IMG/VR virus record: IMGVR_UViG_2917393062_000001
Coordinates: 1 to 4,710 of that record
Source of the DNA: a virus
Taxonomy: Duplodnaviria; Heunggongvirae; Uroviricota; Caudoviricetes
Length of the DNA stretch: 4,710 nucleotides
Reading direction: 5' to 3' (one strand)
The number at the start of each line of letters is the position of its first letter. Within the stretch, counting starts at the first letter, position 1. Below, piece by piece: positions 1-4,710 of the stretch. The notes under the pieces are model-generated. The model ran no database searches, was not told the DNA's origin, and worked only from the letters and a program-made list of their open reading frames with translations. The translations under genes were made by a program, and so were the position numbers.

Positions 1-69
1 TATCTCGTGATCTCTTGAATCTCTGCTGGCGATAGCGTTAATTCGTACATGTGGTCACGTGCCTTACAG

Positions 70-108
70 CATGACCGCCGTCAATATAATCCGGAGATGG
101 CGGTCATG
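70..108. repeat. Hairpin-forming inverted repeat (catgaccgcc 70-79 / ggcggtcatg 99-108, 19-nt loop) overlapping the stop codon of the exonuclease gene
   Basis: 10-bp perfect arms; the distal arm contains the TGA stop (104-106). No U-tract follows on the minus strand, so it is not a canonical terminator. Confidence 0.6.
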
Positions 109-2590
109 GTTGAACATTAAAATCAGCCTGATTTGGGATCAGTTTTTGCCAGATTGCTGAAACTTGTTTTGCCTGGTGGCGTGCATCATCGAGTGCATTG
201 TGAGGTACACCTTCGAATGGAATAGCCGTCCTGACATCGAAGTCCAGGGCTTTTCCCAGCTCAACGATTGTGCGCACATCGCGATCGTTGTAGTAACGCC
301 ACGGGCAGGGGATCCCCTGCCGTTCATATGAACGGCGTAAAATCACATTGTCGAAGTTGGCTCCATTTCCCCAGATTTGGACAAAACTTTCGCCGGAGTT
401 TTCGTTGATAAATTCCCGTAATTGCAGTAGAGCGTCATCTAACGGGATTTCATCGGTAAAAATGGCAGATTGCGCTTCGCGTGATTGCTTCGCCCACCAC
501 TTTATTGCTTTCCGGTCGATGATTCCGCCAGATGTTTCCAGATCGATAGCTTTGCTGAACTCCGGTCCCATCTCTCCGGTTTCGGGATCAAAAAATTTAC
601 CGCCAATAGAGTTGATTGGCGCATCAGGATTTGTTCCCATCGTTTCAAGGTCGACCGACAGGTGACTCCATACTCTGCTGGTGGATGTGGTTTTATGATG
701 ACCGTTCACCTTAACTAAGGGATCTGTCGCCACGCCAGTTTCACTACCGCTGGAGTGGTGATGATCACCGACAGCATTCTCCTTGTGAGGATGTTCAGCA
801 CCTTCCATTTCTTCAGGATTATTTTCCTGAGCTTCAACCTGATTTTCTCCATTGAATGTTTTCTGATATGTCGCGTCGCCCATCACCGCGCCACAGTCAG
901 GGCTGTTGCCGCCGCCGGTCTGATCGCAGGCGGTGCAGATCTTTTCCGGTTCCTGTTGCGCTACTGGTTCAGGTTGTTTCGTTTCTGGCTCGTTTTGTTG
1001 CGTATTTGGGCTGTTTTGTTCCGCTTTCTGGTCGTTCTGTTCCGTTTCTTGCTGGTTCTGGTTCACAGAATCGCGGGTCTGGATCCCCTTAACCCATTTC
1101 GGATCATTCGGGTCGCTAATCCCTGCAACAAATTCACCACGTGATGCAGCGAGCAACTGATTGGCGTCAGGCTGGCTGATATTGGCTGCCTGCATAATTT
1201 TGTTTACTTCGTCAGCGGTAACTTTTACCGGCTCTGGTTGTGCGGTCGTGTCAGATGCACCAGTATTTTGTTGTGAACCTGAGTATGTGCCGTTTTTGCG
1301 GGCAAAATATTCTTCTTTCGTGATTTCAGTAGCCCCCGCAGCCAGCGCCCTGTCCAGGCCAGAAAGTTTGTTTGCGCGACCGTATTTTTCGCCATCCTTA
1401 TCGGTGAAGAGGAAATAGAACGGCCCCTCACGCTCTACAGATGGTTCGACTTCCACTTTGCATTCGGTTTTTTCGTTGTCCGGAATTGCCGTTTCCACTG
1501 CATCAGCTTCTGGTACTGGCGACGGGAGAGTATTAGTTGTGCTCTGATTTGTTCCTTCATCTTCAAATACGCCCTTTGTAGTCAGGTATTCAGTAATGTA
1601 TTTGCTCAGCGCCACGGGATCCTTGTGAATGTCGATCGGACGTTCACGAACAAGACCAAAAATCGTCTGACGAGTGTAGCGAATGGCATCAGGCTGTTTG
1701 CGCATTGATGCGGAGATGCGCTTCCAGTCTTCGCGATCTTTGGCGATAACTTCATTTTTTGCCCAGCGGTGGATGTTGCCGTCAATGTTTCCGGCATCCA
1801 CGTCTCCAGGCCAGAGAGCGTAGGCCAGTTCGTCGTCCAGCGTTTTCCATGTCTGCTTGTATTCGCGACGAATGGTAGCAGTGACAGGGGGGATTTTTCC
1901 CGCCGGGTTTTCAGTGTGCTGTCGGTTGACTTTGGCGCGGGCAAGATCAACAACAGAAGTATATGCACCACCTTCTTTGCGCTCCTTTTCCAGGCGTTTT
2001 TTACGGTCGAGAAAATATGCCTGAACGTCGGGCCATTTGGCGGTTGGTTTTAAATCACGTCTGGCATCGTTGATGTATTCAATCTGACGTTCCGGATACA
2101 TGGCGTTAATTTCTTTAGTCCGGATAATTGCCTCTGCGAGGTGTCCGTCAAAGGTCATCATGTCGTCATCGCCAAGAAGCCCGCTTGCGTTGATGACCAT
2201 ATCCACGGTGACGTTTTCATGTGCGCCAAACTTAACGAGAACAGCGGCCTGTTTGTCGTCGGATAACTGATCAAAGTTAACAATTTCTGTATTCGGCTCT
2301 GGTTCGACCGGGACAAAGGAAGACGATCCCTCATCCCAGCGGTTTTCCTGCATATATTCGGTATCCCAGGAATCAATGGCAGGGCGGGGCATGCCAGGTT
2401 TATCCTCACAGACAAGAAATTTATAAGCGCAGTCCTGAGCTGCCGGATATTGCTCCAGGAATTGCCATGCAAATTTTGCACGGGCGCGGCGCTCGTCGCC
2501 GGCTTCAATGGCAGTGGCTACAGCAACTGCACCTTCTTCCTTTATTGCCTGTTCGTCCGGAATGGCGGCGCAAATAAAGACTTTACTCAT
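104..2590 (-). CDS. Large prophage exonuclease (828 aa), RecE-related mosaic: uncharacterised N-terminal region, Q/N/E/P-rich linker with a Cys cluster, C-terminal DnaQ-like (DEDDh) 3'-5' exonuclease domain
   Basis: Uninterrupted 2487-nt ORF. ATG at 2590-2588 is preceded by GAGG 10 nt upstream (minus strand ...aatGAGGttaaaacaaaATG). C-terminal motifs read directly from the translation: Exo I VDLET (D647/E649, nt 644-652) followed by INSIGG; Exo II GNGANFD (D747, nt 350-352); Exo III HNALDDA (H797/D802, nt 185-202). The central segment (LLAASRGEFVAGISDPNDPKWVKGIQTRDSVNQ...CTACDQTGGGNSPDCGAVMGDATYQ...) closely resembles, from memory, the linker of Rac RecE (exonuclease VIII). Internal ORFs on either strand look like low-complexity junk. 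Confidence 0.85.
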   Translation of the reverse strand: MSKVFICAAIPDEQAIKEEGAVAVATAIEAGDERRARAKFAWQFLEQYPAAQDCAYKFLVCEDKPGMPRPAIDSWDTEYMQENRWDEGSSSFVPVEPEPNTEIVNFDQLSDDKQAAVLVKFGAHENVTVDMVINASGLLGDDDMMTFDGHLAEAIIRTKEINAMYPERQIEYINDARRDLKPTAKWPDVQAYFLDRKKRLEKERKEGGAYTSVVDLARAKVNRQHTENPAGKIPPVTATIRREYKQTWKTLDDELAYALWPGDVDAGNIDGNIHRWAKNEVIAKDREDWKRISASMRKQPDAIRYTRQTIFGLVRERPIDIHKDPVALSKYITEYLTTKGVFEDEGTNQSTTNTLPSPVPEADAVETAIPDNEKTECKVEVEPSVEREGPFYFLFTDKDGEKYGRANKLSGLDRALAAGATEITKEEYFARKNGTYSGSQQNTGASDTTAQPEPVKVTADEVNKIMQAANISQPDANQLLAASRGEFVAGISDPNDPKWVKGIQTRDSVNQNQQETEQNDQKAEQNSPNTQQNEPETKQPEPVAQQEPEKICTACDQTGGGNSPDCGAVMGDATYQKTFNGENQVEAQENNPEEMEGAEHPHKENAVGDHHHSSGSETGVATDPLVKVNGHHKTTSTSRVWSHLSVDLETMGTNPDAPINSIGGKFFDPETGEMGPEFSKAIDLETSGGIIDRKAIKWWAKQSREAQSAIFTDEIPLDDALLQLREFINENSGESFVQIWGNGANFDNVILRRSYERQGIPCPWRYYNDRDVRTIVELGKALDFDVRTAIPFEGVPHNALDDARHQAKQVSAIWQKLIPNQADFNVQP

Positions 2591-2683
2591 TTTGTTTTAA
2601 CCTCATTACAGATTTAAGGGTGAACAAATCCCTGCCATTGCTGGCATATAAAAATGAAACCGGATATTTATTACGGTGCTGGT

Positions 2684-2875
2684 TTAAAGCCCTGCCGGGA
2701 CTTCGTTATTATCCATGCGAATAACTTTATCAACCGGATAACAGTTGCCGGGAATTTTCTGTTCCGCTGCGGCAGCCATGCACTCTTTCATTGAACCATA
2801 TATACCCGTAACCACATCAACCGGTTCGCCCGTATTAAGAAAAACGGTCAGAGTGAGAGCAATAGCAGTATTCAT
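2684..2875 (-). CDS. Small hypothetical protein (63 aa) with a hydrophobic, signal-peptide-like N-terminus (MNTAIALTLTVFLNTG...) and two Cys
   Basis: ORF in the same frame as track ORF 2684..2929, but I prefer the internal ATG at 2875-2873 because it has AGGA 8 nt upstream and overlaps the upstream stop as ATGA (translational coupling). The longer 81-aa version has no comparable ribosome-binding site. Confidence 0.5.
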   Translation of the reverse strand: MNTAIALTLTVFLNTGEPVDVVTGIYGSMKECMAAAAEQKIPGNCYPVDKVIRMDNNEVPAGL

Positions 2876-3060
2876 TGCCAGTATCCTTTTTGCATCAGGC
2901 GTGAACGGGCCAGCATTGAAGCAATGCATACCTTATTTAATAAATTCGGTTCGCGCTTTATCTGGTTAATGGCATCTTCAATAAACTGTTTTTTGCCAGT
3001 AATAACGCCAATTTCAAAACGAGTTTCAGGCGTAGTGGAATTGAGTAATAACGTTTCCAT
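2872..3060 (-). CDS. Small hypothetical prophage early protein (62 aa)
   Basis: ORF with ATG at 3060-3058 preceded by GAGGA (plus-strand tcctc 3068-3072) 7 nt upstream. Stop TGA overlaps the next ATG (ATGA at 2875-2872). Same orientation as and immediately upstream of the exonuclease gene, as for the small kil/racC-class genes of Rac-like prophages. No family recognised. Confidence 0.5.
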   Translation of the reverse strand: METLLLNSTTPETRFEIGVITGKKQFIEDAINQIKREPNLLNKVCIASMLARSRLMQKGYWQ

Positions 3061-3077
3061 TATCGCGTCCTCAGGAA

Positions 3078-3222
3078 TGAATTTTGTGATGCGGTGCCTG
3101 GTGCCTCCAGGTGACGTTAACCAGTTAACAATTAACGCCGGATGTATAAGGAGTTTCGTTACGCCAGTAAAAGGTCACTTTACTGTTTTAACTGAGCCGC
3201 ATTCACCGCATCACAAAATTCA
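3078..3222. repeat. Perfect 19-bp inverted repeat, arms tgaattttgtgatgcggtg (3078-3096) and caccgcatcacaaaattca (3204-3222), separated by 107 bp
   Basis: Exact reverse complements, checked base by base. The proximal arm ends 18 nt upstream of the ATG of the 62-aa gene (3060). Confidence 0.8.
3116..3136. repeat. Cluster of three TTAAC motifs (two full GTTAAC palindromes at 3116-3121 and 3125-3130, plus ATTAAC at 3131-3136)
   Basis: acgTTAACcagTTAACaaTTAACgcc read directly; lies inside the spacer of the 19-bp inverted repeat. Confidence 0.6.
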
Positions 3223-3223
3223 C

Positions 3224-3269
3224 TTTAAAAAGGGCGGGTATCACAGGGAAAACAAAACGGATACCCGCC
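3224..3269 (-). terminator. Terminator-like hairpin in the leader of the leftward small-gene/exonuclease operon: 10-bp GC-rich stem (ggcgggtatc 3233-3242 / gatacccgcc 3260-3269), 17-nt loop, then TTTTT on the minus strand
   Basis: Perfect 10-bp inverted repeat. On the minus strand the stem is followed by cTTTTTaaag (plus aaaaa 3227-3231). The orientation is such that it would stop or attenuate leftward transcription entering the operon. Confidence 0.4.
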
Positions 3270-3422
3270 AAAAGGTAATCAACATGGGTTGTTGTAGCTG
3301 ATTGCCACAACCGGAAGCGCACGGACTAAGATGCCGGCGGCACGCAACAGAGGGAGAAGTGACTTCGCCGTGCGCTTTCGTGTTGTGTGCCTGCTTTTAA
3401 CCACGTCAGGCGAGGTGGTTCC

Positions 3423-3462
3423 TGTTATTCCCCAACAACAAGAAATTTGTATAATCCGGATA
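3423..3462 (+). promoter_or_regulatory. Candidate sigma70 promoter for the plus-strand zinc-ribbon gene: perfect -10 TATAAT at 3450-3455 with TG immediately upstream; weak -35 (TTATTC/TGTTAT around 3423-3430)
   Basis: TATAAT read directly at 3450-3455 (tttgTATAATccgg), 35-60 nt upstream of the candidate start codons. The -35 is poor, so activity may depend on the adjacent TG or on a factor binding the flanking direct repeats. Confidence 0.4.
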
Positions 3463-3478
3463 TCCCCAACAACGAGAA
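3429..3478 (+). repeat. 16-bp direct repeat tccccaacaac(a/g)agaa at 3429-3444 and 3463-3478 (15/16 identical, 34-bp period) flanking the TATAAT -10 element
   Basis: Read directly; the two copies bracket the -10 hexamer at 3450-3455. Confidence 0.7.
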
Positions 3479-3513
3479 GAGTATGTAACGTGATAGTTGA
3501 GTTCTCAGCAGCA

Positions 3514-3945
3514 ATGTCGGCAATCAAAGAAACTGCGGTAATGGCAAAGGGTATTCTGAATGCCAAAAATCAAACTGAGATAAATTCCGCTGTCAGCGAT
3601 ATGCTTTCAAAACTTACGTCTGTTCAGTTTGAATGCGTATCGCTCATTGAGATGGTGCGCTCTTATCAGGAAGAAGCCGCATCTCTCAAAGCAAAAATTG
3701 CAGAGATAGAAGACTTTCAGCAACAGGCGGAAGGTTACAAACTTAACAAGCTTGATTCTGGAACTCTTGTGTATTCCAAGAAGCAATTTATAGGCGATAC
3801 TGAGATAACAGTGCATCTTTGCCCACAATGTTTTGGAAAAAAGGTAATATCTGTACTGCAACCAATGGAAATAATGCGCCTTGATGCTCATTTTCGTACT
3901 TTTTGCCCCGCTTGCAATAATAAGTTCTGGATGAACTCAAGATAA
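3514..3945 (+). CDS. Coiled-coil / zinc-ribbon protein (143 aa from ATG 3514; 151 aa if in-frame GTG 3490 is used); candidate accessory (exclusion/defence or regulatory) moron
   Basis: Only convincing plus-strand ORF. Translation is protein-like, whereas the antisense ORFs (3279..3566, 3607..3891) are W/Y/F/C-rich junk. The N-terminal ~75 aa are heptad-like and charged (SLIEMVRSYQEEAASLKAKIAEIEDFQQQAEGYKL). The C-terminus carries HLCPQC...(25 aa)...FCPACNN, i.e. CxxC-x25-CxxC. GC is about 40% by hand count of a 60-nt sample, versus about 53% in a sample of the exonuclease gene. A perfect TATAAT lies at 3450-3455. Start codon uncertain: no strong SD before ATG 3514 or ATG 3541; GTG 3490 has a weak GAGAAGAG 8 nt upstream. 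The 204-aa track ORF from 3331 runs through the promoter and repeats and is rejected. Confidence 0.65.
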   Translation: MSAIKETAVMAKGILNAKNQTEINSAVSDMLSKLTSVQFECVSLIEMVRSYQEEAASLKAKIAEIEDFQQQAEGYKLNKLDSGTLVYSKKQFIGDTEITVHLCPQCFGKKVISVLQPMEIMRLDAHFRTFCPACNNKFWMNSR

Positions 3946-3990
3946 TTAACCGCTTAATAAGTTGGGACTATCCAGATTTTTAAAGAACAT

Positions 3991-4014
3991 GCCGGATGCT
4001 TATCCGTGTCCGGC
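3991..4014 (-). terminator. GC-rich hairpin (gccgga-N12-tccggc) between the convergent 40-aa gene and the zinc-ribbon gene; possible terminator for leftward transcription; REP-like motifs
   Basis: Stem gccgga (3991-3996) / tccggc (4009-4014) with a 12-nt loop. On the minus strand it is followed by aTGTTCTTTaaaaa (moderately U-rich); on the plus strand no T-run follows. Contains GCCGGATGC and TTATCCG, which echo the E. coli REP consensus, but it is shorter than a canonical REP. Confidence 0.3.
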
Positions 4015-4063
4015 GCCCGCACTTCATCTGTGGAGAAGTGCTTGAGCTCATTGGTCAGTAGTT

Positions 4064-4186
4064 TTAATCACTCGCGAAACTGGAAAGCGCCTGTTTAAAC
4101 TCACTGAAGCTGAGAGCTTCTTCGCCTTCGGCAAGGCCTTCGAAGTATTCTTCGTAAGCCTTTTCCATGATTGCGTCGAAATCCAT
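4064..4186 (-). CDS. Tiny acidic hypothetical protein (40 aa: MDFDAIMEKAYEEYFEGLAEGEEALSFSEFKQALSSFASD); alternative in-frame starts GTG 4195 or ATG 4228
   Basis: Hand translation of the minus strand (not in the supplied track, too short). ATG at 4186-4184 has AGGTGA 5 nt upstream and lies 1 nt after the stop of the 51-aa gene (TGAtATG). Followed by a GC hairpin at 3991-4014. Position and size match the second tiny gene downstream of the repressor in Rac/Qin-type prophages (ydaG/ydfB class), but the sequence itself is not recognised. Confidence 0.4.
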   Translation of the reverse strand: MDFDAIMEKAYEEYFEGLAEGEEALSFSEFKQALSSFASD

Positions 4187-4187
4187 A

Positions 4188-4343
4188 TCACTCACCTGAG
4201 TTTCTTTCCAGCCAGCGACGGGCACCATTTTCGGTTTTAAACGTTTTGCTTTTGGTATACGTCATCGCGGTGAACGTACCGTCCTGGTTAGGAAACACGC
4301 CGTATGCCAGAGATTCGTTGTTGCCAAGATCGATAGTATCCAT
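4188..4343 (-). CDS. Tiny prophage immunity-region protein, 51 aa (MDTIDLGNNESLAYGVFPNQDGTFTAMTYTKSKTFKTENGARRWLERNSGE), YdfA/YdaF-like
   Basis: Same frame as track ORF 4188..4436, but the start is placed at ATG 4343-4341, which has GAGG 6 nt upstream (aaatGAGGtcaacATG). The track's ATG at 4436 lies inside the predicted promoter spacer. Size (51 aa) and position directly downstream of a DicA-like repressor match the ydfA (Qin) / ydaF (Rac) class as I remember it; not verified by search. Confidence 0.55.
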   Translation of the reverse strand: MDTIDLGNNESLAYGVFPNQDGTFTAMTYTKSKTFKTENGARRWLERNSGE

Positions 4344-4420
4344 GTTGACCTCATTTCCCCTTAACGCCAGGGTGGCGGAACTGTTTGCTGAGAACACCGT
4401 GCGGTGTCTTGATGGAAGAT

Positions 4421-4449
4421 AATTTAGTTTTCTCATGGTAATAGGTCAA
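4421..4449 (-). promoter_or_regulatory. Candidate sigma70 promoter for the 51-aa/40-aa gene pair: -35 TTGACC (plus ggtcaa 4444-4449), 17-nt spacer, -10 TAAATT (plus aattta 4421-4426)
   Basis: Read on the minus strand: cacTTGACCtattaccatgagaaaacTAAATTatc. The -35 matches consensus 5/6 and the -10 4/6 with ideal spacing. The predicted start is about 70 nt upstream of ATG 4343. Confidence 0.4.
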
Positions 4450-4469
4450 GTGTTTTTGATGAGAAAACT
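4426..4469. promoter_or_regulatory. Perfect 11-bp inverted repeat (agttttctcat at 4426-4436, atgagaaaact at 4459-4469; 22-bp spacer) bracketing the -35 element; candidate repressor operator
   Basis: Arms are exact reverse complements and sit on either side of, and partly within, the predicted promoter immediately downstream of the DicA-like repressor gene. Confidence 0.45.
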
Positions 4470-4477
4470 CAATGTTT

Positions 4478-4516
4478 AATGCAAAACAAAGCCAATACAT
4501 TGAAATGTAAGGCTTT
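4478..4516 (-). terminator. Candidate intrinsic terminator after the DicA-like gene: composite hairpin (aaagcc/ggcttt outer stem, tacatt/aatgta inner stem) followed on the minus strand by GTTTTG
   Basis: Plus 4488-4516 is aaagcc-aa-tacatt-ga-aatgta-a-ggcttt. On the minus strand the hairpin is followed by ggcTTTGTTTTGc (U-rich), about 20 nt after the repressor stop codon. AT-rich stem, so strength is uncertain. Confidence 0.35.
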
Positions 4517-4536
4517 AAAATTTGTGAAGGAGTGGG

Positions 4537-4710
4537 TTATTGATGTTTGTTACGTTTGCGAGCTTCTAGTAGCTCGGTAAATAGGCGATTAAAATTCTCA
4601 ACACGGGCACGGAGTTCGCTGATTTGTGCTTGCTGCTCTGATTTTGGAAGTGCGCGATACAATCGCAACATCTCCAACTCATCTTCCGATAAGTCTAAGG
4701 AGCTGTTGAG
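4537..4710 (-). CDS. dicA: DicA-like prophage repressor, C-terminal 57 codons (gene starts beyond the right edge of the window)
   Basis: Minus-strand translation runs open from the window edge to TAA at 4539-4537: LNSSLDLSEDELEMLRLYRALPKSEQQAQISELRARVENFNRLFTELLEARKRNKHQ. This matches, from memory, the C-terminal dimerisation tail of E. coli DicA (..LSPKELELLELFNALPESEQDTQLAEMRARVKNFNKLFEELLKARQR..). The gene is missed by the ORF track because it is partial. Confidence 0.65.
   Translation of the reverse strand, partial: LNSSLDLSEDELEMLRLYRALPKSEQQAQISELRARVENFNRLFTELLEARKRNKHQ

Follow-up and report, generated by a model that had tools for sequence, protein, structure and literature searches.

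A terminator-like hairpin in a Qin-type early-left operon, probably the 3' end of a diverged small RNA at the DicF position

The early-left terminators tL1, tL2 and tL3 of phage lambda are overridden by antitermination through N and nutL. In the cryptic prophage Qin of Escherichia coli K-12, DicA-repressed dicBp is the sole promoter found for the dicBF operon, no internal one was detected, and the operon transcript is processed by RNases III and E (10.1101/2023.04.14.536235). As no internal promoter was found, the genes past dicF depend on read-through from an upstream, repressor-controlled promoter. The small RNA DicF, a stable RNA that binds Hfq and on overexpression inhibits cell division, is produced from this operon in several forms. 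The 3' end of the form of 53 nucleotides (nt) arises by Rho-independent termination at the terminator corresponding to the hairpin described below, and a 72-nt form is generated when read-through RNA is cut by RNase III 19 nt beyond that terminator (PMC9438474; PMC5069750); the 5' end of a 190-nt precursor is also made by RNase III (10.1101/2023.04.14.536235). The single-stranded 5' seed of DicF, UUUCUGGUGACG, acts on xylR and pykA (PMC5069750). A similar arrangement is found for SroC in gltIJKL, where early Rho-independent termination in a polycistronic transcript, followed by 5' trimming, yields an Hfq-type small RNA and read-through serves the distal genes (PMC9438474). Here we analyse a hairpin on the minus strand of a 4,710-nt stretch of viral DNA (positions 1 to 4,710 of IMG/VR record IMGVR_UViG_2917393062_000001; this whole stretch is referred to as the window). 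With a probability of roughly 0.72, we favour the interpretation that this hairpin is the Rho-independent terminator of a small RNA encoded at the DicF position within a dicBF-type early-left operon. Elements of this class are known, the DicF 3' end being formed at such an internal terminator of the dicBF operon; what is new is the diverged sequence, which lies outside the DicF model of Rfam 15. The predicted terminator consists of two parts:

3233-3269, minus strand: terminator hairpin of type T4 (types are introduced below), stem GGCGGGUAUC/GAUACCCGCC, with a loop of 17 nt, or of 12 nt with two extra pairs
3227-3232, minus strand: C spacer (3232) and U5 tract (3231-3227), at which transcription is predicted to terminate and the small-RNA 3' end to form

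The hairpin is real. An inverted-repeat search returned a perfect repeat with arms at 3233-3242 (GGCGGGTATC) and 3260-3269 (GATACCCGCC), each of 10 nt, 100% complementary and spaced by 17 nt, and 7 of the 10 stem pairs are G-C. The minus-strand RNA of 3227-3269 and beyond reads GGCGGGUAUC-CGUUUUGUUUUCCCUGU-GAUACCCGCC-C-UUUUU-AAAGUG, which bears out the original prediction of a GC-rich stem of 10 base pairs (bp) followed by five U, with a single C in between. A 66-nt minus-strand RNA at this site folds at -18.0 kcal/mol, compared with -8.4 +/- 2.2 kcal/mol for shuffled sequences (z = -4.3, none of 200 shuffles being equally stable), while the isolated hairpin has -17.2 kcal/mol and the K-12 DicF hairpin -15.1 kcal/mol. 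The structure is kept when folded in contexts of 174 nt and 285 nt, with agreement between the minimum free energy and centroid structures. A motif consisting of 10 or more perfectly paired bp, a loop of 3-20 nt and a T5 run not more than 2 nt away occurred exactly once in the window, at the hairpin site itself, and was present in only 2 of 2000 dinucleotide-preserving shuffles of the window. Read on the plus strand, the stem runs into AAAAGG, which leaves leftward transcripts as the only ones that could be terminated here, the direction that had been proposed.

By definition, an intrinsic terminator has a GC-rich stem of 5-14 bp, a loop that is usually 3-8 nt long and, within about 2 nt of the stem, a tract of no fewer than 4-5 U residues. 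Stem and U tract of the hairpin fit this definition, and its loop of 17 nt (or 12 nt) is outside the usual range, as is also the case in DicF itself. A simple terminator scan was restricted to loops of 3-8 nt and is thus uninformative for a site with a 17-nt loop; it reported only a 5-bp sub-hairpin at this position, and its total for the window was not enriched (10 sites against 5.4 +/- 2.4 expected). For this reason, support for the hairpin is drawn from folding statistics, the motif count and comparative data.

The position of the hairpin is informative. In a three-way alignment of the window with K-12 and phage Tritos, it falls on the 3' half of K-12 dicF, and in Tritos a DicF is annotated at the corresponding position. 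The elements GGCGG-UAUC-GUUUU and CCGCC-C-UUUUU are common to the window hairpin and K-12 dicF, and between the U tract and the start codon of dicB the three sequences hardly differ. Judged by this alignment, the window hairpin and that of the DicF terminator are positional homologs, the former lying in the dicF slot just upstream of dicB. Slot, operon, RNase III-type stem and downstream flank are shared with K-12 DicF (Rfam RF00039, operon ydfABC-dicF-dicB-ydfD). The likeness extends to sequence, with GGCGG/CCGCC as GC clamp, C-UUUUU as tail and UAUC.GUUUU where the 5' arm and loop begin, to the succession of 5' mini-hairpin, U-rich linker and terminator, and to the dicBp-type promoter and DicA-type repressor. 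The two differ in the loop and 3' arm, which in the window result in a perfect 10-bp stem whereas the DicF stem is interrupted, and in the 5' part, where a module that we call S3 stands in place of the canonical DicF 5' seed UUUCUGGUGACGUUU:

3270-3294, minus strand: presumed 5' body of the small RNA, module S3, with a 5-bp mini-hairpin CAACA/UGUUG (3294-3280) and a U-rich single-stranded linker AUUACCUUUU

For a broader comparison, IMG/VR and one genome per species were scanned for the conserved downstream flank, which resulted in 143 loci with enough upstream sequence. Column-wise covariation on MAFFT alignments was set aside, as bulges shift the register between hairpin types, and each sequence was folded individually. 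A GC-clamped hairpin with a U run was found at exactly this slot in 142 of the 143 loci, the single locus without it being a spurious match in an unrelated metagenome-assembled genome. The slot loci carry 31 distinct hairpin sequences, which fall into at least six types (T1, T2, T3, T4, T5 and T6). T1 is the canonical DicF; its variant T1' shows GGUGG/CCACC for GGCGG/CCGCC, a double change; and T4 is the type found in the window. The inner stems vary and yet remain self-complementary (GUAUC/GAUAC, CAUCAG/CUGAUG, AUAUCGGU/GCUGAUGU). We consider this strong evidence that a terminator-shaped hairpin is selected at the DicF slot, and an inverted repeat without function that has arisen by chance, although compatible with the unenriched terminator scan, is effectively refuted by the recurrence of hairpin and U run at the same position in so many distinct sequences, together with the rarity of the motif in shuffled windows and the stability of the fold.

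The slot has a mosaic organization. In the sequence 5' of TTTTTAAAGTGAATTTTGTGATG (loci L003-L142), the hairpin types are joined with at least four 5' modules in many combinations. Module S3 is found with both T4 and T3, little changed, in Qin-like as well as Rac-like prophages; it also occurs in L003, L062, L084, L106, L112 and L113, with variants in E. coli genomes. In a set of 5426 complete E. coli genomes, 205 have a match to the 70-nt region of the S3 type that includes the window variant (79-100% identity); a number of these copies are combined with T3, and the matches inspected were mostly without an annotated feature. The identical 70 nt are present in strain STEC308 between ydfC and kilR of a Rac-like prophage. 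A gene for a division inhibitor follows within 700 nt in 122 of the 134 evaluable loci, DicB in 90 and KilR in 32. We also observed that T2 is mostly located upstream of kilR and T1 mostly upstream of dicB. Among the loci tested with the Rfam DicF model at its gathering score, only the two of types T1 and T1' were detected. Taken together, the comparison shows that the DicF slot hosts a family of related but distinct predicted RNAs.

A full-text literature search for the hairpin and seed sequences retrieved no paper containing them. Faubladier and Bouche reportedly described dicF-like sequences in other bacteria in 1994, and such variants may already be shown there. The Pas small RNAs of enteropathogenic E. 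coli were considered as possibly the same element and ruled out, since they occupy other prophage positions (Q/LpxR, esterase-holin and structural genes).

Some copies carry unexpected host labels. A 98.6% identical copy of the 70-nt region is present in PP818812.1 (L152, 'Actinobacillus phage vB_Apl-pPE4', 47.5 kb), which has been deposited as a phage of Actinobacillus pleuropneumoniae and possesses an E. coli Rac-like early region (DicA, Kil, RecE, RecT). We regard this host label as doubtful, and the phage may derive from a prophage induced in E. coli. An exact copy of the anchor downstream of dicF in E. coli also occurs on GTDB contigs from three metagenome bins labelled Veillonella parvula, Candidatus Nanosynbacter and Collinsella (L136, L139 and L140), with a DicF-type hairpin seen in L136; these are probably mis-binned contigs of Escherichia prophages.

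On both sides, the presumed small RNA is flanked by predicted RNase III-type substrates, each homologous to a structure in K-12:

3078-3222, minus strand: long-range stem directly 3' of the terminator, a perfect 19-bp inverted repeat (3078-3096/3204-3222) around smaller hairpins, homolog of the K-12 dicF-dicB spacer
3312-3380, minus strand: upstream hairpin, homolog of one in K-12, with arms 3312-3324/3368-3380 and base GCGCACGG/CCGUGCGC

The dicF-dicB spacer is highly structured (z = -5.9 for a 285-nt fold), and the RNase III cut that generates the 72-nt form in K-12 maps to the 5' arm of the homologous 19-bp stem. The K-12 upstream hairpin ends near L143 1946-1947; counting back 190 nt from the 3' end of DicF leads to this place, and the lengths lead us to assign the RNase III cut of the 190-nt precursor to this hairpin. 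In the window the upstream hairpin is only about 45 nt away from the terminator, so that the predicted precursor would be about 95 nt long as compared with 190 nt in K-12. Missing at window position 3296-3312 (compared with L143 1950-2070 and L144 6940-6990) is a stretch of about 130 nt that in the K-12 precursor separates the upstream RNase III hairpin from the small RNA; in STEC308 this stretch is still present upstream of the variant. On the minus strand, the spacer at 3083-3220 has a partial match to STnc100, an Rfam family (RF02076) of small RNAs associated with prophages in Salmonella and E. coli; the match covers positions 21-154 of the 206 in the model (27.9 bits, E = 0.0003 on 441 nt). 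The core of the model thus matches the spacer 3' of the hairpin, but the score is below the gathering score of 47 and the hairpin itself is left outside. STnc100 may be related to the dicF-dicB spacer with its RNase III substrate and may not be a small RNA in its own right.

Several observations weigh against the small-RNA interpretation. According to the alignment, the window has CCAUGUUGAUUACCUUUU in place of the canonical DicF 5' seed, and the seed that acts on xylR and pykA is absent; the variant is without either known DicF seed. The Rfam DicF model gave no match at E <= 10 on 3060-3500 (441 nt, the weakest match listed in this search having 12.4 bits) and none at its gathering score (48 bits, Rfam 15) on the window, while for the positive controls the model gave 76.7 bits with K-12 and 61.1 bits with the variant in L005. 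No Rfam family spans the hairpin on the minus strand, either over the window or over 3060-3500, and plus-strand matches to RF_site3 (14.5 bits, E = 6.5) and ZFAT-AS1_1 were judged to be noise. The DicF loop AGUUUUACUCCG is complementary to the ribosome-binding region of ftsZ, CGGAGAGAAACU (-18.8 kcal/mol, with 2% of shuffles as good); in the same kind of short-window duplex calculation, the window loop reaches -15.5 kcal/mol against the ftsZ translation start, which is not significant as 13% of shuffles are as good. A calculation with RNAduplex for the whole small RNA against 140 nt of ftsZ was discarded, being dominated by giant interior loops. Loop length varies among T4-type copies, so that the loop may not be a seed; inspection by eye revealed no clear RNase E consensus; and a loop of 17 nt is long for an efficient intrinsic terminator.

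In view of these differences, the window element is best read as a diverged, unannotated DicF-like small RNA and not as canonical DicF. Because both the 5' seed and the loop differ, its targets are probably at least partly other than those of DicF. A more specific proposal goes further: the hairpin would be the 3' module of an undescribed, seed-swapped DicF sibling, the slot upstream of dicB or kilR being fixed and occupied by a recombining cassette, with the S3/T4 combination directed at targets other than, or beyond, ftsZ. We advance this tentatively, rating its chances at a little under even. If it is true, different prophages would deliver small RNAs with different host targets from one processing scaffold.

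The same differences could be taken to mean that the element is a degenerate remnant of dicF, which acts as a leaky terminator or insulator and holds dicB (or kilR) and the exonuclease at a low level in lysogens without giving rise to a functional RNA. Failure of the Rfam model, loss of the canonical seed and of about 130 nt of the precursor, the lack of significant pairing with ftsZ, the variable loop length, and the location upstream of a division inhibitor in the great majority of loci are all in line with such a process. A bare insulator, however, needs no upstream sequence, and yet module S3 has been kept almost unchanged with two hairpin types in two kinds of prophage, its 70-nt region recurs in 205 complete genomes, and U-rich linker, hairpin and U tail are all intact. 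We consider a remnant unlikely.

The genes around the hairpin allow the operon to be identified:

4537-4710, minus strand: 3' end of a dicA-like (CI/C2-type) repressor, identified by translation and cut at the window edge
4421-4449, minus strand: sigma-70 promoter-like site TTGACC-17-TAAATT, from a promoter scan and alignment with the K-12 dicA-ydfA spacer
4188-4343, minus strand: ydfA, the first gene of the operon, DUF1391 (Pfam)
4064-4192, minus strand: ydfB-like small gene, phrog_2061
2872-3060, minus strand: dicB, cell-division inhibitor of 62 amino acids (aa), the first gene past the hairpin, Pfam DicB PF05358 over its full length (E = 1e-28)
2684-2875, minus strand: ydfD-like gene, DUF1482 (Pfam), with a 4-nt overlap with the dicB stop codon
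104-2590, minus strand: exonuclease of 828 aa, counterpart of ydfE/exoO of Qin-type prophages, with a C-terminal Rv2179c-like 3'-5' exonuclease domain (PF16473, E = 1.7e-62), phrog_2082

The leftward order of dicA-like repressor, dicBp-like promoter, ydfA, ydfB, hairpin, dicB, ydfD and exonuclease, with all relevant genes on the minus strand, agrees with the dicBF operon of K-12 Qin and with the complete phages Tritos and mEp460. The window is thus the Qin-type dicBF early-left operon of a Qin-like lambdoid prophage, and the hairpin had rightly been placed within an early-left operon, upstream of small genes, now recognised as dicB and ydfD, and the exonuclease. The operon differs from that of K-12 in lacking ydfC and in carrying an inserted antisense gene, in addition to the shortened precursor region. 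The repressor fragment presumably resembles the C-terminus of K-12 DicA, and a helix-turn-helix repressor is found at the dicA-like position in related loci.

The site at 4449-4421 aligns with K-12 dicBp (TTGACC...TAATCT), and the leader between it and the start codon of ydfA is almost the same as in K-12. Located about 1.15 kb upstream, this dicBp-like site is the likely source of transcripts that reach the hairpin. A promoter scan did not reveal any promoter-like site between the hairpin and dicB, ydfD or the exonuclease, in agreement with the proximal promoter already having been reported as lacking. The further idea that the exonuclease module depends on read-through from a distant promoter is consistent with the situation in K-12, where no internal promoter was found (10.1101/2023.04.14.536235), but that promoter need not be sought outside the window, as the dicBp homolog lies within it.

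Where we depart from the original prediction is in its proposal of N- or Q-type antitermination. By that account the hairpin would be a terminator of the lambda tL type, and processive antitermination, either N-/Q-like or by an RNA resembling put, would be needed before the exonuclease can be expressed. The hairpin has a suitable orientation and position, and there is a resemblance to the tL terminators, in that a predicted intrinsic terminator is placed within a leftward early operon under repressor control, and the genes for recombination, exonuclease and host killing that follow it need read-through. In mEp460, exo, xis and int are all located behind the homologous DicF terminator, which implies that substantial read-through is needed in lytic growth. 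That the full-length ydfABC-dicFB-ydfDE RNA was not detected in K-12 (10.1101/2023.04.14.536235) would also be expected if transcription is strongly blocked where phage functions are missing. Unlike in lambda, however, no N gene, nutL-like boxA or other antiterminator was found in the window, and the predicted terminator would double as the 3' end of a small RNA. An N-like gene is absent between promoter and hairpin in the window, K-12, Tritos and mEp460, and Pfam gave no such assignment for YdfC or for a 121-aa open reading frame (ORF) of mEp460. Matches to the boxA-like sequence YGCTCTTTA with at most one mismatch are at chance level (2 against 2.0 expected), which is a weak test as nut sites diverge and no search for boxB pairing was made. 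The 86-nt promoter-proximal leader (4340-4425) is not unusually structured, with -18.0 kcal/mol against -18.1 kcal/mol for shuffles (z = 0.03), and this lack of excess structure argues against an RNA of the HK022 put type, although no put model was searched. For the K-12 operon, the literature describes termination and RNase processing only (PMC9438474; PMC5069750; 10.1101/2023.04.14.536235), this operon is not known to have an antiterminator, and the documented role of the dicF slot in K-12 is to provide a small-RNA 3' end. The negative results come from weak tests, and an unrecognised factor could be involved. Antitermination is not needed to explain the anatomy of the operon, and we regard it as quite improbable.

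For the small RNA that we favour, a mechanism can be proposed by transferring the K-12 model through homology of position, flanks and architecture; we infer that the diverged copy would terminate, be processed and bind Hfq as in K-12. Transcription would start at the dicBp-like promoter (4421-4449), subject to repression of the DicA type, and proceed leftward through ydfA and ydfB and then antisense across the inserted plus-strand gene. A fraction of the transcripts would end at the hairpin and U5 tract (3227-3269), with 3' ends at 3227-3231. Trimming, by RNase III at 3312-3380 and probably by RNase E nearer to the terminator, would result in a small RNA of about 55-95 nt, in which the hairpin at the 3' end, the U tail and the U-rich linker would together make up a typical module for Hfq binding. 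Polymerases that read through would transcribe dicB, ydfD and the exonuclease gene, and this RNA would be cut in the 19-bp stem past the terminator. The hairpin would thereby have a dual role, defining the small-RNA 3' end and limiting expression of a toxic division inhibitor and the genes behind it. Such a cassette would differ from SroC in being prophage-borne, mosaic, and flanked on both sides by RNase III-type stems.

The inserted gene is a plus-strand ORF at 3490-3945 (134-151 aa, with a start at 3541 equivalent to that of the Prokaryotic Genome Annotation Pipeline), which lies antisense in the leftward operon where K-12 has ydfC. An extended -10-like motif, TGTATAAT, is found about 35-40 nt upstream (near 3449-3457). 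The protein has two CxxC pairs near its C-terminus (CPQC...CPAC), matches phrog_1244 (function unknown, E = 7e-48), and has only sub-threshold matches of the SLATT type (Pfam SLATT_5 with 18 bits, PADLOC RTasSLATT with 15 bits). It resembles a moron, possibly an exclusion or defence gene, in a placement analogous to that of lambda sieB. In strain Ecol_545 a homolog is accompanied by canonical DicF and also by ydfC. Another hairpin (GCCGGA-12 nt-TCCGGC, 3991-4014) is located between the ydfB stop codon and the point where the antisense ORF ends. Its minus-strand reading leads into AUGUUCUUUAAAAAU, a weak tail rich in U, and on the plus strand there is no U run. It could be a weak terminator of leftward transcripts or a 3' stabiliser for the plus-strand ORF. 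Other small RNAs known to Rfam are encoded near the same early region, namely RalA, the antitoxin of RalR, and the pair of isrK and C4 antisense RNA (L004 11213-11391, L144 12529-12707, L005 and L091). The early-left regions of related prophages are dense in regulatory RNAs.

For the biology of these prophages, a terminator-like hairpin at this position points to the well-known dicBF design, which combines a regulatory RNA with a throttle on toxic genes, and does not betray some concealed circuit of antitermination. Diversity at the DicF slot goes far beyond what annotation would lead one to expect; about 4% of complete E. coli genomes have a match to the 70-nt region of the variant. If the variant is expressed, the prophages that carry it would reprogram their host through different mRNA targets, and it would be missed by genome annotation and by studies of small-RNA interactomes that rely on the Rfam DicF model.

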